Assembly: GCA_964345375.1 (NCBI GenBank)
Contig: CAYFQP010000034.1
Location: forward strand, 65 to 64,064
Length of the DNA: 64,000 nt
From: an uncultured Gammaproteobacteria bacterium
GTDB taxonomy: Bacteria; Patescibacteriota; Microgenomatia; CAYFQP01
Reading direction: 5' to 3'
Each line of letters begins with the position of its first letter. The first letter of the stretch is position 1. Positions 23,304-61,402 of this stretch are shown in pieces. The translations under genes and the position numbers were made by a program. Under the pieces are notes generated by a model. That model saw nothing but the letters and a program-made list of their open reading frames with translations, made no database searches and was not told where the DNA came from.

Positions 23304-24048
23304 GTCTAGAGGGAGAGAAGAAGACCGTTTGTTTAGGAAACAAATAATCATAGGAAGAACAAGAATAAAATAAAGACAGAATGTTGAAGAGAAGGAGCTT
23401 TCTCTATCACCCCCTTAAAAGAAAAACAGAGGCACCTGTTAAGAGGGAGTCTTGTTCTTACATTGTCGCACAAAAAAACCTTTGCGACTTTAAATCTCCT
23501 CCCTTTCGGAGAAGGTTCTAAAGATGAAGATAGGAATTATTTTCAAAAAGTTTTTCTTAATTTTTGTCTGGCTCGATTACTATTTATTTAATTAACTCTC
23601 TATTTTTTGATTTTTCTATTTTCTTTTATTTTTATAAAAACCCGAAAATTAGTTATTTCAAACTATTACTTTTTATAACTCCTCTTCCCCGGTCGGTTTT
23701 TATCCAAATTTTTTCCGCAAGACAAAAATTTAAAAAATCTTGATCAAGGATGATTAGAGACATTGCTTATCATTTAAAAAACGGTTCTAGGGCTTCTAAG
23801 AAACCCTTAGCCTCAGACTCAAGGCTAAAAAGAAATCTTAAAATCGCCTTCTCAGCCACTTTTAGACTTTTCCTTTTAAAATGTTTTCTTTTTTCTTTTT
23901 CAGAAACTTCATTAATTTTTTCAAAATCCTCTGGTTCTATTTTTCTTAGATTTTTATTTTAAAATCATTTTTAAAAATATTTATTAAGATAATAAAAGAC
24001 AATTTATTATTAAAAAATATTAGCCACTCTCTCAATGTCGCACAATAT

Positions 24049-24077
24049 TTGACAAATCATTTCCTTTGGAGTAAACT
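24049..24077 (+). promoter_or_regulatory. sigma70-like promoter (TTGACA - 17 nt - TAAACT) for the recombinase gene
   Basis: Consensus -35, 17-nt spacer and a 4/6 -10, eight nt before the ATG at 24085; overlaps the repeated motif TGTCGCACAA. Confidence 0.4.
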
Positions 24078-24084
24078 TTGATTA

Positions 24085-25023
24085 ATGCCCAAAACAACTT
24101 CTTTGTCAGAATTAAATCAACAATTTCTTGAATATTTAGAGATTGAACGCAATTGTTCTCCCTTGACGATCAGAAATTACAAACATTATCTCGATCGCTT
24201 TCTGAACTTTGCCTCCCCTACTCCAGAAAAACTATCTCCAAAAAATATTAATTTAGAGTTGATTAGAAAGTATCGTCTCTTTCTTTCAAGATATTCAGAC
24301 GATAAAGGGAAAACCCTTTCTCGAAAAACCCAGGCCTATCATGTTGTTGCTCTTCGTTCTTTTCTTCGTTGGCTAGTAAAGAATGATTACGAAACTTTAG
24401 CTCCAGAAAAAATTGATTTACCCAAACAAGAAACTCACTCTTTAAAATTCCTTAATGCTGAACAGATAGAAAGATTGCTTTCTCAACCAAATGTTTCTAA
24501 ACCTTTGGGATTAAGAAATAAGGCAATTTTGGAAGTTTTATTTTCAACTGGTTTGCGAGTTTCAGAGCTAGTGAATCTTAATCGTGATCAAATAAATCTT
24601 TCTCGGAGAGAGTTTGGGGTTATCGGCAAGGGTGGTCGGTCAAGAGTGGTTTTTCTTTCTGAAAGAGCAGTTAGATGGTTAAAACGATATCTTGATTCTC
24701 GCGATGACCAATACAAACCCTTGTTTATCAGAATCGCTGGTTCAGTTGACCCAACCACCCCAGGAGAAAAAATGCGATTGTCAGCCCGCTCAATTCAAAG
24801 GATTGTTGAAAAATATGCCAAAAAGGCAAAATTGCCAATTAAAATCACTCCTCATGGTCTCCGCCACACTTTTGCCACTGATTTATTAATGGCTGGAGCT
24901 GATATCCGAAGTGTTCAAGAACTCTTAGGTCATAAAAACATCCAAACTACTCAAGTCTATACCCATGTGACTGATAAAAAATTACGTGAAGTCCACGAAA
25001 AATATCACGGTAAGGGAAAATAA
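24085..25023 (+). CDS. tyrosine site-specific recombinase, XerC/XerD-like
   Basis: N-terminal SAM-like core-binding domain; catalytic region GLRVSEL, HGLRHTFATDLLMAGADIRSVQELLGHKNIQTTQVYTHV (R..HxxR..Y). Confidence 0.8.
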   Translation: MPKTTSLSELNQQFLEYLEIERNCSPLTIRNYKHYLDRFLNFASPTPEKLSPKNINLELIRKYRLFLSRYSDDKGKTLSRKTQAYHVVALRSFLRWLVKNDYETLAPEKIDLPKQETHSLKFLNAEQIERLLSQPNVSKPLGLRNKAILEVLFSTGLRVSELVNLNRDQINLSRREFGVIGKGGRSRVVFLSERAVRWLKRYLDSRDDQYKPLFIRIAGSVDPTTPGEKMRLSARSIQRIVEKYAKKAKLPIKITPHGLRHTFATDLLMAGADIRSVQELLGHKNIQTTQVYTHVTDKKLREVHEKYHGKGK

Positions 25024-31065: not shown

Positions 31066-31089
31066 TTAGAGCCAGGATGCAAGGAAAGA

Positions 31090-31809
31090 TTAGTTTTTTT
31101 CCTGCTTAAATGGGTATAAAAGAAGAAGGTTGTCGAGAGCTAATCTGGGATTAACATTTGCCTTAAGATAGTTAAGGGTTTTCTCGATTTGGCGAAGAGA
31201 GGTGGTGATTTCTTTGTTTGAGAGGTGAGTTAAAAAAGCTTTTCCTTTAATTTTTTTTAAGAGAATGGCTCGCCAGAGAACTAGTTGGTTTTGACAAAAA
31301 CAAAGGGTTTCATCTCTTGCTCTCAATTGGTCTGTGTATTGAAGCCTTTTTCCGGGTGAAGATTTTAAAATTTTCTCTAGTTCTTGACTCAGTTCTTTTA
31401 TCTCTCTTTGATCAAGCTCGATTTCAGCTTTTTCAGGAAGACTGATTAATCGGCAGCGAGAAACAACAGTTGTCAAAAGATTCTCTTTTCGGGGAGCGGT
31501 TAAGACTAAGACCGAGTCTCCGATTGGCTCTTCAAGGATTTTTAAGAGGGCGTTTTGGGCCTCAGTGGTTAGTTTTTCTGCTTGAGCAATCCAGCCAATT
31601 TTGGGAGGAAAACTATGAGGTTTTAAAGAAAGAGTCTCTTCTAATTTCCTTATCTGATTAATGCCGATTGAGGTTTCGCCTCTTAATTGAAGGAGATCAG
31701 GATCTTGGGTTTGTTGGGCCTTTTTTGGTTTTAATTGAGAGTAAAGTTTTTCAAAAGTTTTCTCTCTTTCTCTAAGATTGCCTCCCAGGATGAGATAACT
31801 GCCAGCCAT
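31090..31809 (-). CDS. holB: DNA polymerase III delta-prime subunit-like clamp-loader protein
   Basis: AQNALLKILEEP and TVVSRC (SRC motif), no Walker A; 239 aa. Confidence 0.65.
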   Translation of the reverse strand: MAGSYLILGGNLREREKTFEKLYSQLKPKKAQQTQDPDLLQLRGETSIGINQIRKLEETLSLKPHSFPPKIGWIAQAEKLTTEAQNALLKILEEPIGDSVLVLTAPRKENLLTTVVSRCRLISLPEKAEIELDQREIKELSQELEKILKSSPGKRLQYTDQLRARDETLCFCQNQLVLWRAILLKKIKGKAFLTHLSNKEITTSLRQIEKTLNYLKANVNPRLALDNLLLLYPFKQEKN

Positions 31810-31847
31810 ATTGACATTCTACCAGAAGGTTTGTAAGATGAAAAGTA

Positions 31848-33611
31848 ATGGCTGCCCAGACTGCCCAGGCTACTCAAGTTACCCAGGCTGGTAACACTCC
31901 GGCTAAAAACCTGGCTGATATCCTTGTTAAACAAGGAGCTCTTAAGGCTGATCAGGCCGAAAAAGTGAAACTTGAGAATATTAATACTGGTAAGCCGGTT
32001 GAGGAAATTGTTGCTAAGGATAAACTTGTTTCTGAAGAGGCTTTAATTAAGGCCAAGGCTGAATTCTACAACGTTTCTTTTGTTAACTTAATGGAAACCC
32101 CCTCTTCTCCCGAAGCCTTGGCTTTGATCCCAAAATCAGTGGCTGAGGCGAATAATCTCATTCCCTTTGCTCTTGATAAGAAAAAGAATGAACTTTCGGT
32201 TGCCCTGGTTAATCCTCTTGATTTGGAAATCATTGAGTTTATTGAAAAGAAATCCGGGGCCAAAATCAAACCCTTCATGGCTTCTCCCAGTCAGATTAAG
32301 GCGGCCATTGCCGAGCGCTACGGAGTTGGTTTAACGACCGAGGTGACAGCGGCCTTAAAAGAAGCGGTTCCCGAAGTGACGCCAACGAAGACGGTGGATA
32401 TCAAAAAATTGGGTGAGGTTATTCGGGAGGCACCAATTGCCAAGATTGTTTCTACTTTGCTTGAGTTTGCCATGCGGAGTCGAGCTTCGGATATTCACAT
32501 CGAGCCAGAAGAGGGTAAAACCCGAGTCAGGTATCGGATTGATGGCATTATGCACGAGAAATTAATTCTGCCTAAAACAGTCCACGAAGCCCTTGTTTCT
32601 CGGATTAAGATTCTTTCAGGAATGAAGATTGATGAAAAACGGTTACCTCAAGACGGCCGTTTTAATTTCCGGGCTGATGGTGATGAGGTCGATTTGCGGG
32701 TCTCTTGTTTGCCAACGGTTCATGGCGAGAAAATGGTCATGAGGCTCTTGAAAAAAACCGGTGGTGTGCCTGATTTGCCTGAGCTAGGTTTAAGAGGTCG
32801 GGCCTTAAAGCAGGTTGAAGAAGCGATTACCAAACCAGTAGGTATTATCCTTGTTTGTGGACCAACTGGTTCTGGAAAAACAACGACTCTTTATTCAATC
32901 ATTCAGCGAATTAATTCTACCCGAGTCAACATTATCACTCTTGAGGATCCAGTCGAATATCAAATTGCTGGCGTTAATCAGGTTCAGGTTAATCCCAAAG
33001 CCGGTTTGACTTTTGCTTCTGGTCTGCGGTCTTTTGTTCGTCAAGATCCAGACATTATTCTTGTGGGTGAAATTCGGGATAAAGAAACAACCGAACTGGC
33101 AATTCAGGCCTCTCTGACTGGCCATTTAGTTTTCTCGACTCTTCACACTAATTCAGCGGCTGGCGCTCTTCCCCGTTTACTAGATTTAGGAGCTGAACCC
33201 TTCTTATTAGCTTCCTCAGCCTCAGCCATTCTTGGTCAGCGAGTTTGTCGCCGGGTTTGCCCTTATTGTCGCCAAGAATTCGAGCCTTCAGAACAGCTAG
33301 TGGCTGATATCAAGAAGGTTTTAGGCCAGTTATTTGATGAAAAAAAATATGGTCCAGGTTTTAAAATGGTCAAAGGTAAAGGCTGTCAGGAGTGTAATAG
33401 CTCTGGTTATCTAGGTCGGGTGGGAATTTTTGAAGTCCTACCAGTAACCGAAAAAATCGGCCGTTTGATTTTAGAAAGTACCCCCGCTAGCAAAGTCGAA
33501 CAGCAAGCGGTTGAAGAAGGAATGGTTACGATGAAACAGGATGGATATTTGAAATCTTTGGAGGGAATTACTACTATAGAAGAAGTCCTTCGGGTTGCCG
33601 AAGTAAGTTAA
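31848..33611 (+). CDS. pilB: type IV pilus assembly / T2SS ATPase PilB/GspE
   Basis: N-terminal GSPII_E_N domain, Walker A VCGPTGSGKTTTLY, Asp/His boxes, tetracysteine CPYC...CQECNSSGY. Confidence 0.9.
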   Translation: MAAQTAQATQVTQAGNTPAKNLADILVKQGALKADQAEKVKLENINTGKPVEEIVAKDKLVSEEALIKAKAEFYNVSFVNLMETPSSPEALALIPKSVAEANNLIPFALDKKKNELSVALVNPLDLEIIEFIEKKSGAKIKPFMASPSQIKAAIAERYGVGLTTEVTAALKEAVPEVTPTKTVDIKKLGEVIREAPIAKIVSTLLEFAMRSRASDIHIEPEEGKTRVRYRIDGIMHEKLILPKTVHEALVSRIKILSGMKIDEKRLPQDGRFNFRADGDEVDLRVSCLPTVHGEKMVMRLLKKTGGVPDLPELGLRGRALKQVEEAITKPVGIILVCGPTGSGKTTTLYSIIQRINSTRVNIITLEDPVEYQIAGVNQVQVNPKAGLTFASGLRSFVRQDPDIILVGEIRDKETTELAIQASLTGHLVFSTLHTNSAAGALPRLLDLGAEPFLLASSASAILGQRVCRRVCPYCRQEFEPSEQLVADIKKVLGQLFDEKKYGPGFKMVKGKGCQECNSSGYLGRVGIFEVLPVTEKIGRLILESTPASKVEQQAVEEGMVTMKQDGYLKSLEGITTIEEVLRVAEVS

Positions 33612-42086: not shown

Positions 42087-42604
42087 AGAAAAAGAGTTTG
42101 GGATTCACCTTAATCGAAACCTTAGTAGTCATTTTCCTGATTGGGATTGTTTTAGTGGCTGGGGGGAATATCTTTTTTGGCATCATGAAGGGAGCCAGCA
42201 AGGCAGAAGTAGAAAGAGAAGTTAAACAGAACGGAGACTACGCTTTGGCAATTATGGAGAGAATGATTAGAAATTCGAGAGGAGTAGTTGTCTGTGATGA
42301 AGACCAAGATGAGTTGACGATTACCAACTTAGATTTTTACCAGACCACTTTTGAGCGAGTCCCGGACTCTGACCTAGGCATCAACCGGGTCGCTTCCTCG
42401 GGTGCCTATTTAACTGGTGAGAATGTTGACGTTCTTTCTTTAAACTTCGATTGTATTTATGAACCAGAAACAAGCTCGGATGAAAAAGACATCAGGCGAG
42501 TGGAGATTAACTTCTCTTTAATTCCCAGAGGAGGAGAAAAGGAAGTACCAGAGACCTACACGATCATTGACTTCAAGACGAGTATTAGTCTGAGGAATTT
42601 TTAG
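42077..42604 (+). CDS. pilin-like protein (GspJ/PilW-like)
   Basis: KSLG|FTLIETLVVIFLIGIVLVAGG. Confidence 0.6.
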   Translation: MAMKKKSLGFTLIETLVVIFLIGIVLVAGGNIFFGIMKGASKAEVEREVKQNGDYALAIMERMIRNSRGVVVCDEDQDELTITNLDFYQTTFERVPDSDLGINRVASSGAYLTGENVDVLSLNFDCIYEPETSSDEKDIRRVEINFSLIPRGGEKEVPETYTIIDFKTSISLRNF

Positions 42605-42642
42605 ATTTGACAATCAATTCTTGAATAGGTAAACTGAAATCA

Positions 42643-43530
42643 ATGATAAAACTGCCTCTTCGTCGTTTTTCTCCTCAGTTAAAGAAAGCAAGGGATTTAC
42701 CCCAAGGACAGGCTCTCCTGGTGATTCTTCTGGTTATGGCGGTTGGTTTGACCATTGGTTTAGCCGTGACCTCAAGGACAGTGACCGACATTGAGATTTC
42801 CGAGAAAACTGAAGAGGCCGCCCGAGCCTTCTCAGCGGCCGAGGCTGGCGTGGAAGAGGCTTTGGTCACAGCCGGGTTTGGAGAACTTCCTTCTGGTGAA
42901 TTTGAAGGAGGCGTCAGTTATACGACCAGGAAGGACCCCCTTGGAGAAGAAAAGACTTATCTTTTTCCTTCAGTGGAAAATAATGAAACAAAAACTCTTT
43001 GGCTAGCTGAATATCCAGATACAGAAAGTTATGCTGAAGACAGTTTAATTTTGTATTGGGGAGATTTTGATTCTTCTGAAAATCCTAGTTTAGAAGTTAT
43101 TGTTTATTATCTAGATGGAGGTAATTATAAAACTTGGCGTTATGCTCTCAACCCGATTGATAGAGGTGATGGTTTTTGTCAACCAGATCTAGCGGGAGAT
43201 ACCTGCGATAAAGTTCTCGATTTTGACCAGTTTGGCCCTCATTCAATTGGCAGCCAAGAAGCAAGTTATAAAGCAACCATTGAGTTGCCAGGAGGGCCTA
43301 ATGTTGTTCTCCTTTTTGCCAGATTGAGACTTTTGTATTCAGACGAATCCCAAGTTCTAGGTGCTGAAGCTGTTGGCGATAGCATTATCCTCCCCTCTCA
43401 AGGAGTCAAAATCACTTCAACAGGCACAGCCGGAGCTTCAACCAGAAAAGTCGAAGTAATTCGAGAGCACCCTGCTCCTTCAGAAATTTTTGACTTTTTG
43501 CTTTACTCAGGAACCGATTTAGAGAAATGA
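42643..43530 (+). CDS. GspK/PilX-like minor pseudopilin (large, no Glu+5)
   Basis: LPQGQALLVILLVMAVGLTIGLAV hydrophobic N-terminus resembling GspK; 295 aa. Confidence 0.45.
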   Translation: MIKLPLRRFSPQLKKARDLPQGQALLVILLVMAVGLTIGLAVTSRTVTDIEISEKTEEAARAFSAAEAGVEEALVTAGFGELPSGEFEGGVSYTTRKDPLGEEKTYLFPSVENNETKTLWLAEYPDTESYAEDSLILYWGDFDSSENPSLEVIVYYLDGGNYKTWRYALNPIDRGDGFCQPDLAGDTCDKVLDFDQFGPHSIGSQEASYKATIELPGGPNVVLLFARLRLLYSDESQVLGAEAVGDSIILPSQGVKITSTGTAGASTRKVEVIREHPAPSEIFDFLLYSGTDLEK

Positions 43531-53996: not shown

Positions 53997-54248
53997 ATGA
54001 CTGGAATTGAGAAAGAACAGGCAATTTATCCTTTGCCAGCTAAAGACATGAAGAGTCTTTTGCTAGAGTACTTTGAAGGACTAGATAAGCTTTATCAGCC
54101 TGTTTTTTTGAATTTGATAAGATCAGAAAGGACTAAGGAGAATTGGGTAATCGTGCCTGCAACAGGCGAAAAAGAACTAGAAAATGGGACCCACTATTTA
54201 ATTAGGATAGAAGATGCTTATGAATGGTTAAGAGAAGAGTTCTTCTAA
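53997..54248 (+). CDS. small hypothetical protein
   Basis: 83-aa ORF, convergent with pheT (4-nt overlap), non-repetitive composition. Confidence 0.35.
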   Translation: MTGIEKEQAIYPLPAKDMKSLLLEYFEGLDKLYQPVFLNLIRSERTKENWVIVPATGEKELENGTHYLIRIEDAYEWLREEFF

Positions 54249-56293
54249 GATGTTTTAAGGCTTGCTCCGGATTTTTGTTTTACTTTTTTAATCACCTTTT
54301 CTCTGATTTTGCCTACTTCTTTATCAGTCAAAGTCCTTTTTGGGTTTTGATAAGTGATTCTTAAGGTTCGATTGTTTTTATAAGTATCAATTAATTCTAC
54401 TTTTTGAATAATTGAACTGGTATCTTTAATCAATTGAATCAAATCACCAACTGGTGTTTTAGGTTTAAGAACAAAAGTTAAGTCTTCAACAATGACTGGG
54501 TATTTAGGGATGGGAGTATATGTTTTAGTAGTGGTTGCCAGTTTGGTTAATTTTTTAAAGTCGAGATCAAAAATAATTACCTTTTCTTCTATTTCAAATT
54601 TAGCCAATCTTTGAGAACTGATTTCTCCAATAGTTCCTAATAAATCTTTACTGGTTTCAATGATGGCTGTTTTACCAGAGGCAAAATACGGTTCTCTACC
54701 CACCCAAGGCTTAAAACTAAGATTATCAATTCCCATTTGTTTAAGAAGAAGTTCACAGACGCCTTTGAGATAGGAGAACTTCTTGCCTGTTACCAAGCAG
54801 ATAAGTCTTGGCCTCTCGTCTGGTAATTTCTTTTCTTGAGGAAGGTAAATACTAGCGAGCTCAAAAATTTTCATTCGAGGAAAAAAGGCTTGATTTTGAG
54901 CACAGGTTTTAAGAAGGGAAGGAACCAGAGAGGTCCGAAGATATTTAAGTTCATTGGTCAGAGGATTTTGGAGTTTAAGGTGGTTTTTTGTCTTTAGTCC
55001 AGCCTGCTTAATCAATTCTTCGCTGGTGAAAGAATAATTGTAAATCTCAGAGAATCCCTGGCTAACGAGAAAGTCCTTAATTTTATTTTCCCATTGAAAG
55101 TAAGGCTCGATTTTGCCTTTTTTAGGTTGAGGGAGAGGTGAAAAACCATATTGGGAGTCAAGAGGTGGTAAATTACTGGGGAGGCGGTGATAGCCATAAA
55201 CTCGGGTCACTTCTTCAACTAGATCTTCTTCAATAGCAATGTCTTGAGTCCGCCAAGTAGGTGCTTGGACCTTAAGAGATTTTGATGAAGAGCTGATAAT
55301 TTTAAAACCAAGAGAGTTTAAGATTCTTTTAACCTTTTCTGGGCTTAGCCTAATTCCTACTCTTGATTCCAAAAATTTGTAATTTAATTCAATCTCTGCC
55401 CTTTTTTGTGGTTTGGGATAAATATCGATTAGTTTACTGGCCACTACTCCTCCCGAAAGATCTTTTACCATCTTTACTCCTTGAGCCATGACCGGAAGGA
55501 TACCCTCAAGATCGATCCCCCGTTCAAATCTAGCCGCAGCATCAGTCCGAAGACCAAGAGCAAAGGATGTTTTTCTAATCCTGGTTGGATTGTAAGCTTG
55601 GACAAAAAAGAGAACTCGTTGAGTTTTTTCATCAATTTGACTATTTTCTGCTCCCATAATGCCACAAAGGTCGATTAATCTTCCTTCACCGTCTTCAATA
55701 ACAATGTCTCCACCTGGTAATTCTCGATTGATTCCATCTAAAGTAGTTATCTTTTCTCCTGGTTTAGAAAGCCTCATGATCATCTTTTGCCCCAGAATTT
55801 TATCGTAATCAAAAGTGTGAATAGGCTGGCCGGTTTCAATCATTAAATAGTTTGAAATATCAACCACATTTGAAAGAGAACGGATGCCTACTTTTTCTAA
55901 TCTTTCAGCTAGCCATTTTGGTGAAGGTTTAATTTTCACTTGATCAATAACTATGGCTGAAAATCGTGGGCAAATATCTTTCTCTTTTATCTCAACCTCA
56001 AGCTGATATTTTGGCTGTTTAACCTCATTAATTGAAGGAATTTTTGGAGACTTAAAACTGGCCTTAATGCCAAATTCAGGTAGGACAGTAGCTGCCTCTC
56101 GGGCAATACCGACAATTGATAGACAATCATATCGATTGACCGTAATTTCGATTTCCAGAATAGAGTCACCTTTCTTTTTATGAATTTTTTCCACTGACTG
56201 GCTACATAGCGAGAGAGCTTCAGCTGTTTTTTCTGGACTAGCTGAAGTTTTAAGAAACTCTTTCAGCCAAGAATAAGGAACAAGGATATTCAT
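54245..56293 (-). CDS. pheT: phenylalanyl-tRNA synthetase beta subunit (short form)
   Basis: B3/B4, B5 and catalytic-like domains; 682 aa. Confidence 0.9.
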   Translation of the reverse strand: MNILVPYSWLKEFLKTSASPEKTAEALSLCSQSVEKIHKKKGDSILEIEITVNRYDCLSIVGIAREAATVLPEFGIKASFKSPKIPSINEVKQPKYQLEVEIKEKDICPRFSAIVIDQVKIKPSPKWLAERLEKVGIRSLSNVVDISNYLMIETGQPIHTFDYDKILGQKMIMRLSKPGEKITTLDGINRELPGGDIVIEDGEGRLIDLCGIMGAENSQIDEKTQRVLFFVQAYNPTRIRKTSFALGLRTDAAARFERGIDLEGILPVMAQGVKMVKDLSGGVVASKLIDIYPKPQKRAEIELNYKFLESRVGIRLSPEKVKRILNSLGFKIISSSSKSLKVQAPTWRTQDIAIEEDLVEEVTRVYGYHRLPSNLPPLDSQYGFSPLPQPKKGKIEPYFQWENKIKDFLVSQGFSEIYNYSFTSEELIKQAGLKTKNHLKLQNPLTNELKYLRTSLVPSLLKTCAQNQAFFPRMKIFELASIYLPQEKKLPDERPRLICLVTGKKFSYLKGVCELLLKQMGIDNLSFKPWVGREPYFASGKTAIIETSKDLLGTIGEISSQRLAKFEIEEKVIIFDLDFKKLTKLATTTKTYTPIPKYPVIVEDLTFVLKPKTPVGDLIQLIKDTSSIIQKVELIDTYKNNRTLRITYQNPKRTLTDKEVGKIREKVIKKVKQKSGASLKTS

Positions 56294-56295
56294 AA

Positions 56296-57330
56296 TTAGA
56301 ATTGGTTAATAAATCTTAAATCAGGCTCATATAAAGGCCGAATATCATCTAAGTTAAGTCCAGATTTCATTAAGTAATTCCTTTCTACTCCCCAACCAAA
56401 AGCAAAGCCTGAATATTTCCTTGGATCAATACCGCCGGATTCAAGAACAAGAGGATGGACCATTCCTGAGCCTCCTAATTCGTGCCAACCGCCTTTACAA
56501 ACTTTGCAGCCTTTACCTAGACAAAGAGGGCAATTAACGTCAACTTCAAAGGATGGTTCAGTGAACTGAAAATGGAAAGGCCGGAGACGGATTTTTCTCT
56601 TTGGGCCAAAGAAGTTTTTGGCAAAATAATCGAAAACCCCTTTTAGGTGAGTGACATTAATTCCCCTATCAATTACTAATCCTTCAAACTGGTGAAAGGT
56701 TGGCGTATGGGTAGCATCGTAATTAGGCCGGCCACAACGACCAATATTAATCATTCTAATTGGCGGTTCAGTTCTTTGCATTTCCCTGATTTGGCCTGAG
56801 GATGTATGGGGGGTGATAACCATCCTGCCATATTTTGAATGAGGCTTTTGATCAACAAAAAAGCTTTCAAAGTCATCTCTAGCCGGATGATCCTCGGGCA
56901 TGTTAAGAGCCTCAAAAGCAAACCATTCCCACTCAACCTCTGGATAGCTAACCCGGATAAAACCGATTTTTTCAAAAACAACCGAAATTTCTTTTATCGC
57001 CTGGCTGATTAAATGAAGATGTCCTTGAGGAATTTTTTCTCCAGGGACAGTGATGTCAGACCATTCTTTATCTTCAGGAGGAATTCTTTGAAGTTTGGCT
57101 TGAGTTTGTTCAAGAGCGTCTTCAATTGCTTTCTTGACATCATTAAGAAGACCACCGATTTCTTTTCTTTTTTCGACTTCGAGTTCGGGTAACTCTTTGA
57201 TAAGCTTGGTAATCTCCCCTTTTCGGCCTAGATATTGGATTCTTAATCTCTCTAACTCTTTTTTATCCTCAGCCTCAAGAATACTAGAAATGGCTTGATT
57301 TTTAAGATTTTGAATTTTATTGATATTCAT
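56296..57330 (-). CDS. pheS: phenylalanyl-tRNA synthetase alpha subunit
   Basis: Class II motifs (FRPFHFQFTEPSFEVD, GWGVER). Confidence 0.9.
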   Translation of the reverse strand: MNINKIQNLKNQAISSILEAEDKKELERLRIQYLGRKGEITKLIKELPELEVEKRKEIGGLLNDVKKAIEDALEQTQAKLQRIPPEDKEWSDITVPGEKIPQGHLHLISQAIKEISVVFEKIGFIRVSYPEVEWEWFAFEALNMPEDHPARDDFESFFVDQKPHSKYGRMVITPHTSSGQIREMQRTEPPIRMINIGRCGRPNYDATHTPTFHQFEGLVIDRGINVTHLKGVFDYFAKNFFGPKRKIRLRPFHFQFTEPSFEVDVNCPLCLGKGCKVCKGGWHELGGSGMVHPLVLESGGIDPRKYSGFAFGWGVERNYLMKSGLNLDDIRPLYEPDLRFINQF

Positions 57331-57363
57331 CTTATTTTATTCTAGCAGATTTTAAGTTTTTTC

Positions 57364-57391
57364 AACAAAAAAACTCTCCTGGGGAGAGTTT
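57364..57391 (-). terminator. intrinsic terminator 40 nt upstream of pheS (attenuator terminator)
   Basis: Minus-strand RNA AAACUCUCC-CCA-GGAGAGUUU followed by UUUUUUG. Confidence 0.65.
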
Positions 57392-57429
57392 AAAAAATGC
57401 CAAAACCAACCTCTCCCTTTTATTCCTGC

Positions 57430-57477
57430 TTATCTAAAGAAAAAATATAAGCAATGGGAGTTGGTTGGTTTTCGCAT
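57430..57477 (-). CDS. pheST leader peptide MRKPTNSHCLYFFFR (three consecutive Phe codons UUU UUC UUU)
   Basis: ATG 13 nt after the rplT stop. The ORF sits inside alternative hairpins: segment 1 AACCAACCAACUCCC pairs with segment 2 GGGAGAGGUUGGUU, and segment 2 GGGAGAG can instead pair with the CUCUCCC of the terminator 5' arm. Confidence 0.55.
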   Translation of the reverse strand: MRKPTNSHCLYFFFR

Positions 57478-57490
57478 TAAATAAATTCTA

Positions 57491-57841
57491 TCAAGCTGGC
57501 TTAGCTTTGTCAACTATTTTTTGAAAGGTTTTTGGATCAGAGATGGCTAAATCAGCTAAAGTTTTTCGATCAAGCTCGATCTTGGCTTTTTTCAGGCCAG
57601 CAATAAATTGATTATAGGAAAGCTCAGAATCAGCCAGAGCTGCATTTATCCTGGTTATCCAGAGCTTTCTCATGTCTCTTTTTCTTAATTTCCGACCAGC
57701 AAAGGCATATTCGCCAGCATGCAAATCAGCCTCTTTAGAGACTTTGTAAAGCCTTCCTTTAGTCATCCGAAAGCCCTTGGTGCGTTTTAGCACCTTTTTA
57801 TGTCTTTTTTTTCTGGTTGGACCAGTTTTAACTCTTGTCAT
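57491..57841 (-). CDS. rplT: 50S ribosomal protein L20
   Basis: MTRVKTGPTRKKRHKKVLKRTKGF typical L20. Confidence 0.9.
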   Translation of the reverse strand: MTRVKTGPTRKKRHKKVLKRTKGFRMTKGRLYKVSKEADLHAGEYAFAGRKLRKRDMRKLWITRINAALADSELSYNQFIAGLKKAKIELDRKTLADLAISDPKTFQKIVDKAKPA

Positions 57842-58056
57842 TTGCCTAATAATTTCTTTATATTTTTCTTATATTTTCCCTTAAGCTCTTTAGGAATTTT
57901 ATGAGCTCTTTTAGTAGATTTCTTCTTTTTTGATTGAAGATGACGACTCCGAGAAGACCGATGGAGAACTTTACCAGTCTTGGTTATTTTAAACCTTTTG
58001 CTGGCTGACGTTCTTGTCTTTAGTTTTATCTTTTTTTTGTTTTTCTTCTTTTTCAT
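57838..58056 (-). CDS. rpmI: 50S ribosomal protein L35 (Lys-rich)
   Basis: KLKTRTSASKRFKITKTGKVLHR L35 core. Start uncertain: an internal Met is chosen, and the ORF track extends to 58080. Confidence 0.75.
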   Translation of the reverse strand: MKKKKNKKKIKLKTRTSASKRFKITKTGKVLHRSSRSRHLQSKKKKSTKRAHKIPKELKGKYKKNIKKLLGK

Positions 58057-58588
58057 TTTTTTCTCCTTGGCTGGCAACAAAGGTTAGAGTTAACCGTTTA
58101 CCCATCCACTTGGGATCATGTTCGGGCTTGGCTTCTTCGCTCAAACGGTTAATGAATTCCTTTAAGATTTTATATCCAAACTCCTTTTTGGTCAACTGAC
58201 GACCAAAGAATCTAACTTCGACTCTAACTTTATCGCCTTCCTTAACGAACTCTTTTGCTTTTTTGACCCTAATGTCAAGATCACCTTCGGCAATAAAAGG
58301 TGAAACCCGAATTGTCTTTAATTCTCCTCCCTTGGCCTTCTTTTTGTTTTTCTTAATCTTTTTTGCTTCCTGATAGCGAAATTTTTTAAAATCTACTATT
58401 TTAACAACCGGTGGCTTAGCCGCTGGGGCTACTTCAACTAAATCAAGGCCACTCTTTTTTGCCTTTTCGAGGGCTTGAGAGCGAGACAAAACACCGATTT
58501 GTTTTCCATCTTGACCGATAACTCTCAGTTTAGGAGACCTGATTTTTTCGTTAATCCGGTAGAACTTAAATTTTCTCTTCCGTGCCAC
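57989..58588 (-). CDS. infC: translation initiation factor IF-3 with Lys-rich C-terminal tail
   Basis: INEKIRSPKLRVIGQDGKQIGVL N-domain plus C-domain. The C-terminal KNEKEEKQKKDKTKDK tail overlaps the rpmI 5' end in another frame. Confidence 0.85.
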   Translation of the reverse strand: MARKRKFKFYRINEKIRSPKLRVIGQDGKQIGVLSRSQALEKAKKSGLDLVEVAPAAKPPVVKIVDFKKFRYQEAKKIKKNKKKAKGGELKTIRVSPFIAEGDLDIRVKKAKEFVKEGDKVRVEVRFFGRQLTKKEFGYKILKEFINRLSEEAKPEHDPKWMGKRLTLTFVASQGEKNEKEEKQKKDKTKDKNVSQQKV

Positions 58589-58610
58589 CTATGCTTAAAT
58601 AATAGCAAAA

Positions 58611-60347
58611 TTACTCTTTATTTTCAATTTCTTTCTTGATTTTATCAATAAACTTATTGAGCTTGATTTTACCCAAATCTCCCCTACTCCGTTCTCGAAC
58701 TGAAATATTCTTCTCTTTGACCTCTTTCTCACCAACGACAATCATATAAGGCACTTTTTGAAGCTCAGCATCCCGAATTTTGGCGGAGGTAGTTTCGTTC
58801 CGATCATCAAGCTCAACCCTTAGGCCTTCATCTTTAAGCTTTTGATAAACACTCTGAGCATAATCAAGCTGCTTGTCAGTAATGGGAATAACCACTACCT
58901 GAACTGGTGATAGCCAAGTTGGAAAAGCGCCAGCATAGTGCTCGACTAAAACTCCTAAAAAGCGCTCGACTGAGCCATAAACAACCCGGTGGATCATAAC
59001 TGGTTGTTCTCTTTTCCCTTCTGGAGTGATATATTTCAAATTAAAATTTTCAGGTTGGGCAAAGTCCAACTGAATGGTGGCGCATTGCCAGGTCCGGCCA
59101 ATAGCATCTTTGAGACGGAAATCAAGTTTAGGGCCATAAAAAGCACCTTCGCCCTCATTAATTAAATGGGGTATCTTTTTTTCTTTTAAGACTTGTTTCA
59201 TAATCTTTTCTGCCTTATCCCAGATCTTTTTTGAACCAATTGACTTTTCTGGCCGGGTCGAAAGTTCTAGACGATCCAGTTTAAGGCCAAAAGTAGCGTA
59301 AACCTCAAAACAAAGATCAATGATTTTTTTCAATTCATCTTTTACTTGACCTGAAGTGCAATAAATATGGGCATCATCTTGGGTAAATTCACGAGGACGA
59401 AGAATGCCATGAACTTCTCCAGAGCTTTCGTAACGGTGACAAACACCGTACTCCGCCATTTTTAAAGGAAATTCTTTATATGAACGCTGTTTTGACTTAT
59501 AGATCATCATCCCGCCATCGCAGTTCATTGGTTTAATGGCCATATTCCATTCTCGAGCATCAGGAGTAATGACTTTATACATTTTGTCGATGAAAAAGGT
59601 GGTGTGGCCACTCTGATCCCAGGTCTTCCGAGTTAAGATTTCAGGCGTCCGAACTTCCAGATAACCCTCTCGGTCATGGATCTTTTTCCAGTATTCATAT
59701 AACTCTCTATAAATAATTAAGCCTTTATGATGCCAAAAAATGTCGCCCGGTGCAGAAGGATGAAAAGAAAAGAGTTCTTGTTCCCTACCTATTTTTCGAT
59801 GATCTCTTTTCTTGGCTTCTTCAAGCATCTTGAGATGATTGTCGAGTTCTTTTTGAGTTGGAAAACAAATCCCGTAAATCCGAGTGAGCATCGGGTTTTT
59901 CTCATCTCCGCGCCAGTAGGCTCCAGCTAAAGAGAGAAGTTTGAAAGGACCGATTTTTGAGGTATCAGTGAGATGAGGGCCAGCACAGAGATCAAGAAAG
60001 TCTCCAGAACGGTAAAGACTGACTTTTTTTACTCCTTCTTTGACTAAATCATCAATCAATTCTAATTTATAGGGTTGATTCTTGAAAAGCTCTCGAGCTT
60101 TTTTAATCGAAACTTCTTCTTTCTTAAAAGCATCTTTAGCTTTGATTATTTTAGCCATCTCTTTGGAGATTTTATCTAAGTCTTTTTCAGAGATTTTCTT
60201 CTTACCAAAGTCAAAGTCATAATAGAAGCCGTCTTCAATCGCTGGACCAATACCCAGTTTAACTTGCGGATAAAGCTTTAAAACCGCTGCTGCCAAAACA
60301 TGGCTACAGCCATGTCTCATTTTCTCTAACTGATCTTTAGATGCCAT
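58611..60347 (-). CDS. thrS: threonyl-tRNA synthetase (lacks N-terminal TGS domain)
   Basis: Begins at the N2/editing domain (HGCSHVLAAAVLKLYPQVKLGIGPAIEDGFYYDFDF), followed by class II core and anticodon-binding domain; 578 aa. Confidence 0.9.
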   Translation of the reverse strand: MASKDQLEKMRHGCSHVLAAAVLKLYPQVKLGIGPAIEDGFYYDFDFGKKKISEKDLDKISKEMAKIIKAKDAFKKEEVSIKKARELFKNQPYKLELIDDLVKEGVKKVSLYRSGDFLDLCAGPHLTDTSKIGPFKLLSLAGAYWRGDEKNPMLTRIYGICFPTQKELDNHLKMLEEAKKRDHRKIGREQELFSFHPSAPGDIFWHHKGLIIYRELYEYWKKIHDREGYLEVRTPEILTRKTWDQSGHTTFFIDKMYKVITPDAREWNMAIKPMNCDGGMMIYKSKQRSYKEFPLKMAEYGVCHRYESSGEVHGILRPREFTQDDAHIYCTSGQVKDELKKIIDLCFEVYATFGLKLDRLELSTRPEKSIGSKKIWDKAEKIMKQVLKEKKIPHLINEGEGAFYGPKLDFRLKDAIGRTWQCATIQLDFAQPENFNLKYITPEGKREQPVMIHRVVYGSVERFLGVLVEHYAGAFPTWLSPVQVVVIPITDKQLDYAQSVYQKLKDEGLRVELDDRNETTSAKIRDAELQKVPYMIVVGEKEVKEKNISVRERSRGDLGKIKLNKFIDKIKKEIENKE

Positions 60348-60361
60348 TAGACTTATTATAC

Positions 60362-60390
60362 AAAAAAACCGCCTCTTTGTTTAGAGGCGG
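60362..60390 (-). terminator. intrinsic terminator after the small membrane protein / tRNA-Val transcription unit
   Basis: CCGCCUCU-AAACAA-AGAGGCGG hairpin followed by UUUUUUU on the minus strand. Confidence 0.55.
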
Positions 60391-60409
60391 AGGCAAAGCC
60401 AATTCCCTG

Positions 60410-60625
60410 CTATCTTGGAATTAGCTTTTTGGCCTCCAGGGCCGTGTTAGTTGCCTCAATAATATTAGCTAAAAACTGGCCAATAATTGGTAGACCGTCA
60501 ATCCAGTTGAGAACCAGAGTCAGAAAAGTTAAGAGAAGAGCAAAGCCAATCGTGGCACCAATCATCCAGCCTAAACCAGAGAGAAAACCCTTAACAAAAG
60601 AAAATCTAATGCTATTTTTATTCAT
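60410..60625 (-). CDS. small hypothetical membrane protein (71 aa)
   Basis: Two TM helices. Its start ATG shares its A with the 3' terminal A of the tRNA-Val CCA, and a terminator follows. Confidence 0.4.
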   Translation of the reverse strand: MNKNSIRFSFVKGFLSGLGWMIGATIGFALLLTFLTLVLNWIDGLPIIGQFLANIIEATNTALEAKKLIPR

Positions 60626-60701
60626 GGTGGGTAGTACAGGACTTGAACCTGTGACCTTCTCGATGTCAACGAGACGCTCTAGCCATCTGAGCTAACCACC
60701 C
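60625..60701 (-). tRNA. tRNA-Val (anticodon GAC), CCA encoded
   Basis: Reverse complement GGGTGGTTAGCTCAGATGGCTAGAGCGTCTCGTTGACATCGAGAAGGTCACAGGTTCAAGTCCTGTACTACCCACCA folds as a cloverleaf with anticodon loop UUGACAU. Confidence 0.85.
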
Positions 60702-60781
60702 AATATAAAATACAAGATAAGAATATTTTAACATGAAGAAAGGCTTTAGACAATTAAAATTAAATAAAATTGAAGAAGTAA

Positions 60782-61402
60782 TTAGCCGGCTTGAGTGGCC
60801 ATGTACCGTTCTTGAGAGAGCATGAATTTGGTGCCTGACTTTTTAACTTGGCGCCAATAGAAAGGCTGTCTTTTAGCTCTTTTATTAGTGGCTGCCAGCC
60901 ATTCAGAGGCATTGTTAACTTTTTTGCTCAAAGATTTGATGAAAGAAGCTAATTTCTCAAAAAAGGTTTCATGATAGACACCAGGGTTAACGGTTTGCTG
61001 GATAGCAGCTGTTTTGACTTCCCGGTCAAATTTCTCAATTGACTTGGCTAATTCAATTACCTCAGCTTGAAGAGCCTCAATTTTCTTTTTTTCTGTTTGT
61101 TTCCGGGCTGAAAAAACCTCAAATTCTTGACGTCGTAATTGTTCTTGTTGCCTTAATTTTCTCTCGTATTCTCTCCTGATTTCGGCTTCTCTGGAGACAA
61201 CGTCAACTGACTCATTAGGTTTGAGTTCGCCCTGGAATCTCTTTGGTCGGAAAAGCATGTCGGCTGCATCCTCAGGAACTTTTTGGATTAAGTCTCTTTT
61301 CATTGAAGAAACAGAAGACTGGCCAATATCCCGAAGAGCCTCCAAGACTGAGTCGTGGCGGACAACCTTTTTCTTTTTATTGTTTTTATCCATCAAAATC
61401 AT
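60782..61402 (-). CDS. hypothetical protein with central coiled coil
   Basis: 206 aa, charged, EIRREYERKLRQQEQLRRQEFE coiled-coil segment. Confidence 0.45.
   Translation of the reverse strand: MILMDKNNKKKKVVRHDSVLEALRDIGQSSVSSMKRDLIQKVPEDAADMLFRPKRFQGELKPNESVDVVSREAEIRREYERKLRQQEQLRRQEFEVFSARKQTEKKKIEALQAEVIELAKSIEKFDREVKTAAIQQTVNPGVYHETFFEKLASFIKSLSKKVNNASEWLAATNKRAKRQPFYWRQVKKSGTKFMLSQERYMATQAG

Follow-up and report, generated by a model that had tools for sequence, protein, structure and literature searches.

In attenuators of the classical trp, his, leu, thr and pheA kind, a ribosome that stalls on cognate codons of a short leader peptide selects between an antiterminator and a terminator in the nascent transcript. 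The closest described counterpart of the element considered here is the pheM-pheST attenuator of Escherichia coli (PMC1262725). We analyzed a 64,000-nucleotide stretch of DNA (positions 65 to 64,064 of contig CAYFQP010000034.1, GenBank assembly GCA_964345375.1; hereafter "the window") from an organism that is titled an uncultured Gammaproteobacteria bacterium and placed by GTDB among the Patescibacteriota (Microgenomatia, CAYFQP01). Between rplT and pheS of the window lies an element that we interpret as a ribosome-mediated leader-peptide transcription attenuator, which would sense charged tRNA-Phe and control read-through into pheST; we put the probability of this interpretation at about 0.8. 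The element resembles the classical attenuators in that stalling on cognate codons would pick the antiterminator or the terminator, and differs from them in that the regulated gene encodes an aminoacyl-tRNA synthetase (aaRS) and is not part of a biosynthetic operon.

Leader-peptide attenuators of aaRS genes have been reported or predicted in Streptomyces (PMC1262725) and in Firmicutes (PMC2965389), and leaderless leader peptides have been predicted upstream of aaRS and amino-acid genes in Deinococcus deserti (PMC4007540, the main text of which does not mention pheS). The view taken in the initial annotation of this DNA, that attenuation of pheST by ribosomes is classically proteobacterial, is thus too narrow. 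In mycobacteria, attenuators based on leaderless polycysteine short open reading frames have been reported (bioRxiv 10.1101/834739). As in Deinococcus and mycobacteria, a short open reading frame (ORF) rich in cognate codons is predicted here at a 5′-terminal AUG in the leader of a tRNA-synthetase or amino-acid gene, in an organism in which leaderless mRNAs appear to be common. A leaderless start is not new in itself. The window differs from those examples in phylum and sequence, and in that its start codon sits within the anti-antiterminator stem.

The likeness to pheM-pheST extends to the genes, the position after rplT, a leader of 14–15 codons with a Phe run, mutually exclusive 1:2, 2:3 and 3:4 pairings, a purine-rich segment 2 (AGGAGGCU in E. 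coli, GGGAGAG in the window) and a terminator with a U-run. In E. coli, however, the 5′ strand of stem 1:2 itself contains the Phe codons, such that a stalled ribosome masks segment 1 directly, whereas in the window they occupy an apical loop downstream of segment 1. The pheM start lies 122 nt after rplT and uses a Shine-Dalgarno (SD) sequence, whereas the window ORF is predicted to be leaderless; the distance from leader stop to pheS is 283 nt in E. coli versus 99 nt in the window; and only the latter has a possible extra promoter after the terminator. When the two leaders are read side by side, only a T-rich run of Phe/Tyr codons is common to both, and no pheM family is found among the Rfam matches. 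Because sequence homology with pheM is not detectable, the two leaders are likely of independent origin. A 14-mer, TTTTTTTACTTTAG (encoding ..FFYF..), is identical in E. coli pheM (L161 2227-2271, minus strand) and in the leader of one relative of the window (L081, within 2352-2475; L numbers denote individual loci), and probably represents convergence of Phe/Tyr codon runs rather than homology.

Organization of the pheST leader

The gene order on the minus strand of the window is tRNA-Val, thrS, infC, rpmI, rplT, pheS and pheT, with a spacer of 160 nt between rplT and pheS. The initial annotation placed in this spacer a 15-codon ORF with three consecutive Phe codons, a 1:2 pairing, an alternative GGGAGAG/CUCUCCC pairing and a terminator with seven U residues shortly before pheS, and all of these are present (Table 1); the inner hairpin and the predicted promoters P1 and P2 are additions to it. 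Its proposal of a Phe-codon attenuator of pheST in a genome of the Candidate Phyla Radiation (CPR) is well supported by the comparative evidence given below, namely conservation, enrichment of Phe-Phe-Phe (FFF) runs, reading-frame bias and linkage to pheS.

The leader region folds with −46.3 kcal/mol (RNAfold; z = −4.2), and none of 200 shuffled sequences folds as well. In the minimum free energy (MFE) structure, a long stem between segments 1 and 2 encloses an inner hairpin and is followed by the terminator.

Table 1. Positions in the window of the pheST leader and the genes around it.
Feature	Position	Strand	Details
rplT (L20)	57491..57841	minus	Last gene of the upstream thrS-infC-rpmI-rplT cluster; stop codon 57493-57491, 13 nt before the mini-ORF ATG
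Promoter P1 (predicted)	57485..57513	minus	TTGACA 57513-57508, 17-nt spacer, TG 57493-57492, TAGAAT 57490-57485
Segment 1	57456..57478	minus	AAUGC-G-AAAACCAACC-AA-CUCCC; 5′ strand of the anti-antiterminator stem in MFE and centroid structures; includes the mini-ORF start codon
Leader mini-ORF	57430..57477	minus	MRKPTNSHCLYFFFR, 15 codons + TAA; ATG 57477-57475, TAA 57432-57430; homologous Phe-run ORFs in 30 other non-redundant loci
Putative regulatory Phe codons	57436..57444	minus	UUU UUC UUU, codons 12-14; in the apical loop of the inner hairpin
Inner hairpin	57426..57454	minus	UUGCUUAU/AUAAGCAG; arms 57454-57447 / 57433-57426; 13-nt loop with the Phe codons and AG; stop codon inside the 3′ strand
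Segment 2	57396..57417	minus	Parts 2a and 2b
Segment 2a	57417-57411	minus	GGGAGAG; alternative partners CUCCC of segment 1 or segment 3
Segment 2b	57411-57396	minus	GGUUGGUUUU-G-GCAUU; pairs with segment 1
Intrinsic terminator region	57364..57391	minus	Hairpin 57391-57371, −10.4 kcal/mol: segment 3 (5′ arm AAACUCUCC), loop CCA, segment 4 GGAGAGUUU; 9-bp stem, 3-nt loop; U7 run 57373-57367; CUCUCCC 57388-57382 in segment 3 pairs with segment 2a; 40 nt between stem and pheS ATG
Candidate promoter P2 (inferred)	57339..57347	minus	TGcTAGAAT, extended −10 without a good −35; between terminator and pheS, ending 8 nt before the pheS ATG
pheS (regulated gene)	56296..57330	minus	ATG at 57330
pheT	54245-56293	minus	Follows pheS

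Related leaders and their two architectures

Relatives were retrieved by PheS, without selection on the leader, which yielded 80 species-representative genome loci and 80 metagenome loci. All of them are Patescibacteria/Microgenomates-like, PheS identities are 54–84%, and the distance between rplT and pheS ranges from overlapping genes to more than 2 kb. A terminator lies within 130 nt of pheS in 58 of 146 non-redundant upstream regions (window included), and in 29 of those 58 an ATG-initiated mini-ORF with at least three Phe codons is situated just upstream of it. With two weaker homologues added, the set comprises 31 leaders, which divide into 12 of type A, 17 of type B and two others (L010, L029). 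On sequence grounds, these leaders most likely constitute a previously undescribed family of Phe leader-peptide attenuators that is widespread in Microgenomates and has two main architectures.

Type A, to which the window belongs, keeps the base of its stem, AUGC..CCAACC with GGUUGG..GCAU, and ACCAACC:GGUUGG is almost invariant; the upper hairpin varies. The leader peptides of this type include MREPTNPYCLFFYFR (L081, with 84% PheS identity), MRRPTNPDKVSFFFRTL (L001), MREPTSSQFFGFFDFRSQR, MLKATYAKRPFFPFFFFGNDA, MQVPTITRAAIEVSFFFT and MQVPTITLQHLASFFFFA. Type B is compact. Its mini-ORF starts between −4 and +5 nt from the rplT stop codon, often as ATGA, and its members have no promoter of their own. 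Here CUUCACC, which lies inside the Phe codons, pairs with GGUGGAG, and GGUGGAG can pair alternatively with CUCCACC of the terminator. Peptides of type B include MRLFFFTSFYFRIS, MKSFFFASFFG and MKLFTFTSFFFRI. Overall, the leader peptide is conserved only in its Phe run and its N-terminus, and the latter is constrained by the RNA stem.

Phe codon enrichment and linkage to pheS

Runs of FFF are found before 16 of the 58 pheS-upstream terminators (28%) versus 4 of 609 other terminator-like sites in the same loci (0.7%; Fisher p = 5×10−15), and ATG-initiated ORFs with at least three Phe codons before 29 of the 58 (50%) versus 73 of the 609 (12%; p = 5×10−11), although both p-values overstate independence because the loci are phylogenetically related, which counts against our interpretation. 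Given that an FFF-containing ATG mini-ORF occurs at only 4 of the 609 other sites, chance alone is a poor explanation.

The enrichment is specific to the reading frame. The 31 leaders hold 122 Phe codons in frame versus 60 and 62 in the other two frames, and the in-frame count is strictly highest in 26 of them. Phe makes up 26.5% of leader residues versus 4.5% in the neighboring proteins.

The element is also tied to pheS. The type A segment-2 signature GAGGTTGSWTTTKGC occurs 14 times in 1.9 Mb, on every occasion 62–138 nt upstream of pheS and on the pheS strand, and of the 20 matches to the type B signature, 19 are upstream of pheS. At L001, an ORF on the opposite strand separates rplT from the leader, and the leader with its own promoter still precedes pheS; the element therefore belongs to pheS and not to rplT. 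The ORF in question (L001 2072-2728) encodes 218 amino acids with an HUH-like motif (MPNHFHFQV) and looks like an IS200/RAYT-type transposase. In seven type B loci, no more than 14 nt separate the end of the terminator stem from the pheS ATG. An essential gene right behind a terminator, with no room for a promoter in between, argues strongly that termination is conditional.

These data also bear on whether the stretch from P1 to the terminator might instead be a stand-alone gene that merely lies beside pheS and specifies a trans-acting small RNA or a 15-residue hydrophobic peptide. A strong promoter followed by an efficient-looking terminator would indeed give an abundant RNA of ∼110 nt, and in Sinorhizobium attenuator RNAs and leader peptides, once released, can act in trans (PMC6614838, PMC7298713). 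We nonetheless regard this explanation as extremely unlikely: the peptide is unconserved outside its Phe run and stem-constrained N-terminus, the element is always immediately upstream of pheS on the same strand, and type B leaders lack a promoter of their own and begin at the rplT stop codon. A trans role would, moreover, not exclude a role in cis.

Conservation of the alternative structures

In type A, 92% of the alignment cells of the 1:2 stem are paired, versus 28–55% in slid controls. Three pairs have changed on both sides, yielding a covariation score that none of 500 shuffles reaches; the compensatory pairs include A:U to U:A (six versus six sequences) and, in L090, C:G to G:C. L001 (AAAGUGUC/GACACUUU) as well as L082 and L083 (GGCUU/AAGCC) retain the inner hairpin with unrelated sequence. 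For type B the 1:2 stem is 96% paired, with mostly one-sided changes to G·U, and the 2:3 helix is 95.5% paired, versus 45–72% in slid controls. This helix is nearly invariant; its covariation is not significant (59 of 500 shuffles) and the helix is simply conserved. The RNAalifold consensus structure of type B is the 2:3 antiterminator itself. Alignment of the spacers had been put forward with the initial annotation as a check on the Phe run and on covariation in the stems, and it bore out the former together with the pairings, all of which are kept in relatives, but not covariation of 2:3. Covariation is thus clear only for the type A 1:2 stem and the inner hairpin, and the complementarity of 1:2, 2:3 and 3:4 is conserved. 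The count of 80% paired for 3:4 is an understatement, as MAFFT misregistered the terminators of type A and of half of type B.

A further comparison concerns how well the 5′ arm of the terminator can pair with the 45 nt that precede it. The value is −7.6 kcal/mol in the leaders versus −4.2 kcal/mol in 189 ordinary terminators (p = 3×10−10), and the window taken alone is at the 4.8th percentile of those 189. A comparison of each segment-2 region with terminator arms of other classes did not discriminate (native −7.6 versus swapped −7.0, p = 0.22), with a CUCC core common to all classes and an arm definition that omitted loop bases belonging to segment 3 in type B.

Predicted promoters and gene starts

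P1 is the best sigma-70-like match in the 7 kb from 54000 to 61000 (11/12 plus the TG). It overlaps the last codons and the stop codon of rplT, and 7 nt separate its −10 box from the mini-ORF ATG. Transcription is predicted to start at ∼57478, which would put the ATG at about +2 and make the mini-ORF leaderless or nearly so; no SD sequence precedes it. All 12 type A leaders have a perfect TTGACA, a 16–18-nt spacer, TAnnnT and then 7–8 nt to the ATG.

Starts of this kind are frequent in the window. A −10-like hexamer ends 5–10 nt before the ATG in 22 of 58 long ORFs, versus 6% of random positions, and the spacing from P1 to the mini-ORF is the same as in those 22. An SD-like 4-mer is present in only 10 of the 58. 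Judged from its sequence, the mini-ORF therefore begins as an ordinary leaderless gene of this genome would. By a heuristic count, about 26 of the 58 genes have neither an SD-like 4-mer nor a −10 box, from which it follows that SD-independent internal initiation is probably common in the genome. Leaderless gene starts are apparently the norm in the window (for example at 60390-60345, 31089-31850, 24040-24090 and 42600-42645), and TTGACA is often found 16–18 nt upstream of their −10 box.

One of these starts, that of thrS (60390-60345, minus strand), is preceded by a strong terminator, CCGCCTCT-AAACAA-AGAGGCGG plus T7. Directly after this terminator comes TGTATAAT, then 7 nt, then the thrS ATG at 60347, a layout like that before pheS.

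Proposed mechanism and modeling of the switch

In the mechanism that we propose, transcripts would start at P1 and the leader peptide would be translated from a leaderless or near-leaderless mRNA; transcripts arriving from rplT would enter the leader too. With no ribosome on the leader, or once a ribosome has finished the 15 codons and gone, the very stable 1:2 hairpin would form. Segment 3 would then be free to build the 3:4 terminator, and transcription would stop at the U7 run. When Phe-tRNA is scarce, a ribosome would stall on codons 12–14, in the apical part of the hairpin, and hold CUCCC (segment 1b) off GGGAGAG (segment 2a). The latter would pair instead with CUCUCCC of the terminator 5′ arm, no terminator would form, and RNA polymerase would read into pheS-pheT. 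We infer that the mini-ORF is translated and that pheS is translated from read-through transcripts. The scheme would also require that renewed pairing of segment 1a with 2b across the stalled ribosome is not possible.

We folded the nascent transcript up to the terminator loop with no ribosome, with a Phe codon in the A site or with a ribosome on the stop codon, and took as readout the ensemble free energy gained by pairing of segment 3 with upstream RNA. The plain footprint extended from −15 to +13 of the A site (30 nt). As a positive control, E. coli pheM gains −0.7 kcal/mol without a ribosome, −6.5 kcal/mol when stalled at Phe (best value −9.6) and −0.7 kcal/mol at the stop codon. Type B leaders average −1.2, −9.7 and −3.1 kcal/mol for the same states, and it is this type that E. 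coli pheM resembles in the masking model. A ribosome on the last Phe codon leaves 2a free in all leaders in which 2a was located (28 of 31).

The behavior of the window in this model is the first of several points that weigh against our interpretation. With the plain footprint its values are 0.0, 0.0 and 0.0, such that no switch is predicted, and most type A leaders are likewise unswitched, L082 and L083 switching partially. The plain footprint fails in the window because the 5′ tail AAUGC.AAAACCAACC stays free and re-pairs with 2b (GGUUGGUUUU.GCAUU). The initial annotation had a stalled ribosome mask segment 1; in the footprint model, a ribosome whose A site holds a Phe codon reaches no further than the 3′ edge of that segment, and RNAfold gives no switch unless pairing across the ribosome is barred. 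When the 5′ RNA is barred in this way, the gain is 0.0 kcal/mol without a ribosome and −9.7 kcal/mol with a stalled one (7 bp, GGGAGAG:CUCUCCC). Folding thus upheld the 1:2 stem and the terminator, both of which are in the MFE structure, and gave a gain for 2:3 only with the 5′ tail barred. A 2a:3 helix with 1a:2b re-formed would be a pseudoknot, and by our own geometric estimate its connecting loop of 7–9 nt would probably not be long enough to bridge it.

Segment 2 had similarly been expected to be masked by a ribosome that reaches the stop codon. With 12 nt between stop codon and GGGAGAG in the window, however, the segment stays clear of a terminating ribosome whose edge is at +13 nt, and with the 5′ RNA barred the antiterminator gain in this state is still −10.2 kcal/mol. 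Since segment 2 is unmasked at the stop codon, termination under ample Phe must depend on departure of the ribosome and renewed pairing of 1:2. The gap between stop codon and 2a is 0–6 nt in 8 of the 12 type A leaders and 10–12 nt in the window, L081, L093 and L113.

It is conceivable, and we offer it only tentatively, that type A represents a mechanistically distinct form of attenuation. Either a helix would be sterically excluded from closing around the ribosome, or a second 70S ribosome on the 5′-terminal AUG would cover segment 1a, making the switch dependent on a disome or queue; each would operate beside a basal leaderless pheS promoter after the terminator. The features that suggest such a form are the predicted leaderless mRNA, an anti-antiterminator whose 5′ strand is built from the start codon and the first seven codons, and the placement of the Phe run in the apical loop, one ribosome length from the 5′ end. 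All type A leaders have Phe codons at position 12 or later, which, as a matter of speculation, might leave room for the second ribosome.

Among the points on the opposing side are also the properties of the 2:3 helix in the window, which has just 7 bp, is weaker than the terminator and is conserved without covariation. Within type A, the MQVPT subfamily shows only a weak frame bias, and two members (L016, L102) have no more than one or two Phe codons. T-rich sequence can give FFF ORFs by chance; one such ORF, MDKVRPYFFFRVKT at L009, was considered as a leader homologue and rejected as fortuitous, as it sits inside the terminator of a T-box-like leader. Finally, all 12 type A loci have a −10-like box 5–9 nt before the pheS ATG, after the terminator, with a TGn extension in seven of them, and read-through mRNAs have no SD sequence before pheS. 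In type B, such a box is found in only 3 of 17 loci. In type A, including the window, pheS may therefore be expressed from P2 independently of the attenuator; P2 may supply a basal level to which read-through from the strong P1 is added.

The box before pheS is also an argument that the terminator is an ordinary, unregulated one that insulates the upstream unit, with pheS transcribed leaderless from P2 and the mini-ORF and alternative pairing being by-products of T-rich, low-complexity sequence. The similar layout before thrS, the 12% of control terminators that have an upstream ORF with at least three Phe codons, the chance ORF at L009 and the modest percentile of the window's own antiterminator complementarity point the same way. 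An insulating terminator would, however, leave unexplained why a dedicated consensus promoter should make only a terminated RNA of ∼110 nt. It likewise does not account for the 23-fold enrichment of FFF ORFs (27.6% versus 1.2% expected from backgrounds of 0.7–12%), for the in-frame bias and the compensatory changes in the 1:2 stem, or for the retention of the leader with pheS in L001 and the promoter-less type B loci. On balance we judge this explanation unlikely, and favor a leader-peptide attenuator.

T-box-like leaders and other solutions upstream of pheS

Interchange of T-boxes and leader peptides upstream of aaRS genes has been described by Naville and Gautheret (PMC2965389), and the relatives of the window contain what may be examples. 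T-box-like leaders precede pheS in the sister lineages L009 (2469-2824; = L106), L018 (2786-2958) and L014 (2612-2851), scoring 47.8, 38.3 and 35.2 bits, respectively, all below the gathering score of 93. The L009 match has E = 2×10−9, a GGUGGUACCGUG motif and, where the specifier aligns, UUC. These three leaders may be divergent T-boxes of the CPR that escape the Rfam threshold. Like the pheS T-boxes of Firmicutes, they share with the window leader the gene, the tRNA-Phe charging signal and the terminator/antiterminator output, and they differ in that the sensor is uncharged tRNA bound directly by the RNA and not the ribosome.

For the window itself, a T-box (RF00230) was considered and rejected: the region 57300-57560 has no GGUGGNACC motif, no bulge and no model match at E up to 10. 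The L20 leader (RF00558) is not among the window leader matches at E up to 10 either, and Phe_leader (RF01859) scores 17 bits versus a gathering score of 55 (E = 1.8) in a permissive scan of the leader that gave only chance-level matches. At the gathering threshold, Rfam finds only tRNAs in the whole window and 10 loci.

These results weigh on the possibility that a factor distinct from the translating ribosome reads the long hairpin. Examples would be uncharged tRNA-Phe, acting through a minimal T-box-like structure with UUC in its apical loop and UGGU in 2b, and proteins of the kind of L20 or PheRS. The location of the Phe codons in the apical loop, the near invariance of ACCAACC:GGUUGG, the T-box-like leaders of sister lineages and the failure of the footprint model alone to switch type A could all be accommodated by such a sensor. 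Against it stand the lack of T-box and L20 leader matches just noted and of a T-box bulge or A2 helix within the 2:3 loop. In L090, moreover, GCAACC/GGUUGC replaces ACCAACC/GGUUGG, so that the ACCA/UGGU motifs are gone and the pairing is kept. A riboswitch would also need no 5′-terminal ATG, no in-frame run of 3–6 Phe codons and no stop codon just before 2a. We consider a non-ribosomal sensor very unlikely, and retain translation of the leader as the probable input.

Many relatives without a mini-ORF have a G-run, GGGG(A)G, right after the rplT stop codon (for example ..AAG-TAA-GGGGGG), within the last ~80 nt before pheS. It is seen in L002, L038, L043, L046, L052, L061, L065, L068, L073 and L130, and also in L086 and L103, and its sequence complements the 5′ arm of a terminator that follows some tens of nucleotides later. 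In L002, L038, L061, L065, L068 and L073, RplT has a C-terminal extension ending AGF..., and L086 and L103 look like type A remnants in which segment 2 and the terminator have been kept and the ORF lost. The G-run loci could be attenuators read by a ribosome terminating on rplT, or plain terminators.

Other relatives that lack a leader carry one of two conserved motifs, TTTATGCTATTCTT(A/G)AA and GCATTTTGCCTCAAAATTCGATATACTTA, which end a few nucleotides before the pheS ATG (last ~35 nt before pheS in L037, L042, L047, L049, L051, L137, L140, L152, L153 and L159; also L055, L059, L062, L064, L072 and L078-L080). These motifs are probably lineage-specific leaderless promoters.

As to the naming of the organisms, many GTDB records with close Microgenomates-like PheS genes and leaders (L002, L011-L013, L017, L023 and numerous other genome loci) are titled "uncultured Gammaproteobacteria", "Pseudomonadales" or, in one case, "Bathyarchaeia". 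They look like mislabelled metagenome-assembled genomes of Patescibacteria.

Implications

A full-text literature search returned no paper joining leader peptides or attenuators with Patescibacteria, or T-boxes or riboswitches with the CPR. The leaders have no Rfam model, and one could be added.

If our interpretation is correct, ribosome-mediated attenuation, and with it a physical or kinetic coupling of transcription and translation, extends to the CPR, whose members have reduced genomes and unusual ribosomes and whose regulation is barely known. The forms of pheS control within one lineage would comprise a leaderless leader peptide, a second kind that is translationally coupled to rplT, and a T-box-like leader, with nothing recognizable in other cases, and such variety would offer a compact natural series for studying the exchange of sensors. 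Since CPR bacteria are widely considered to rely on host organisms for their amino acids, metatranscriptomes could be used to detect starvation for Phe-tRNA in uncultivated cells, through the ratio of terminated versus read-through RNA from this site.

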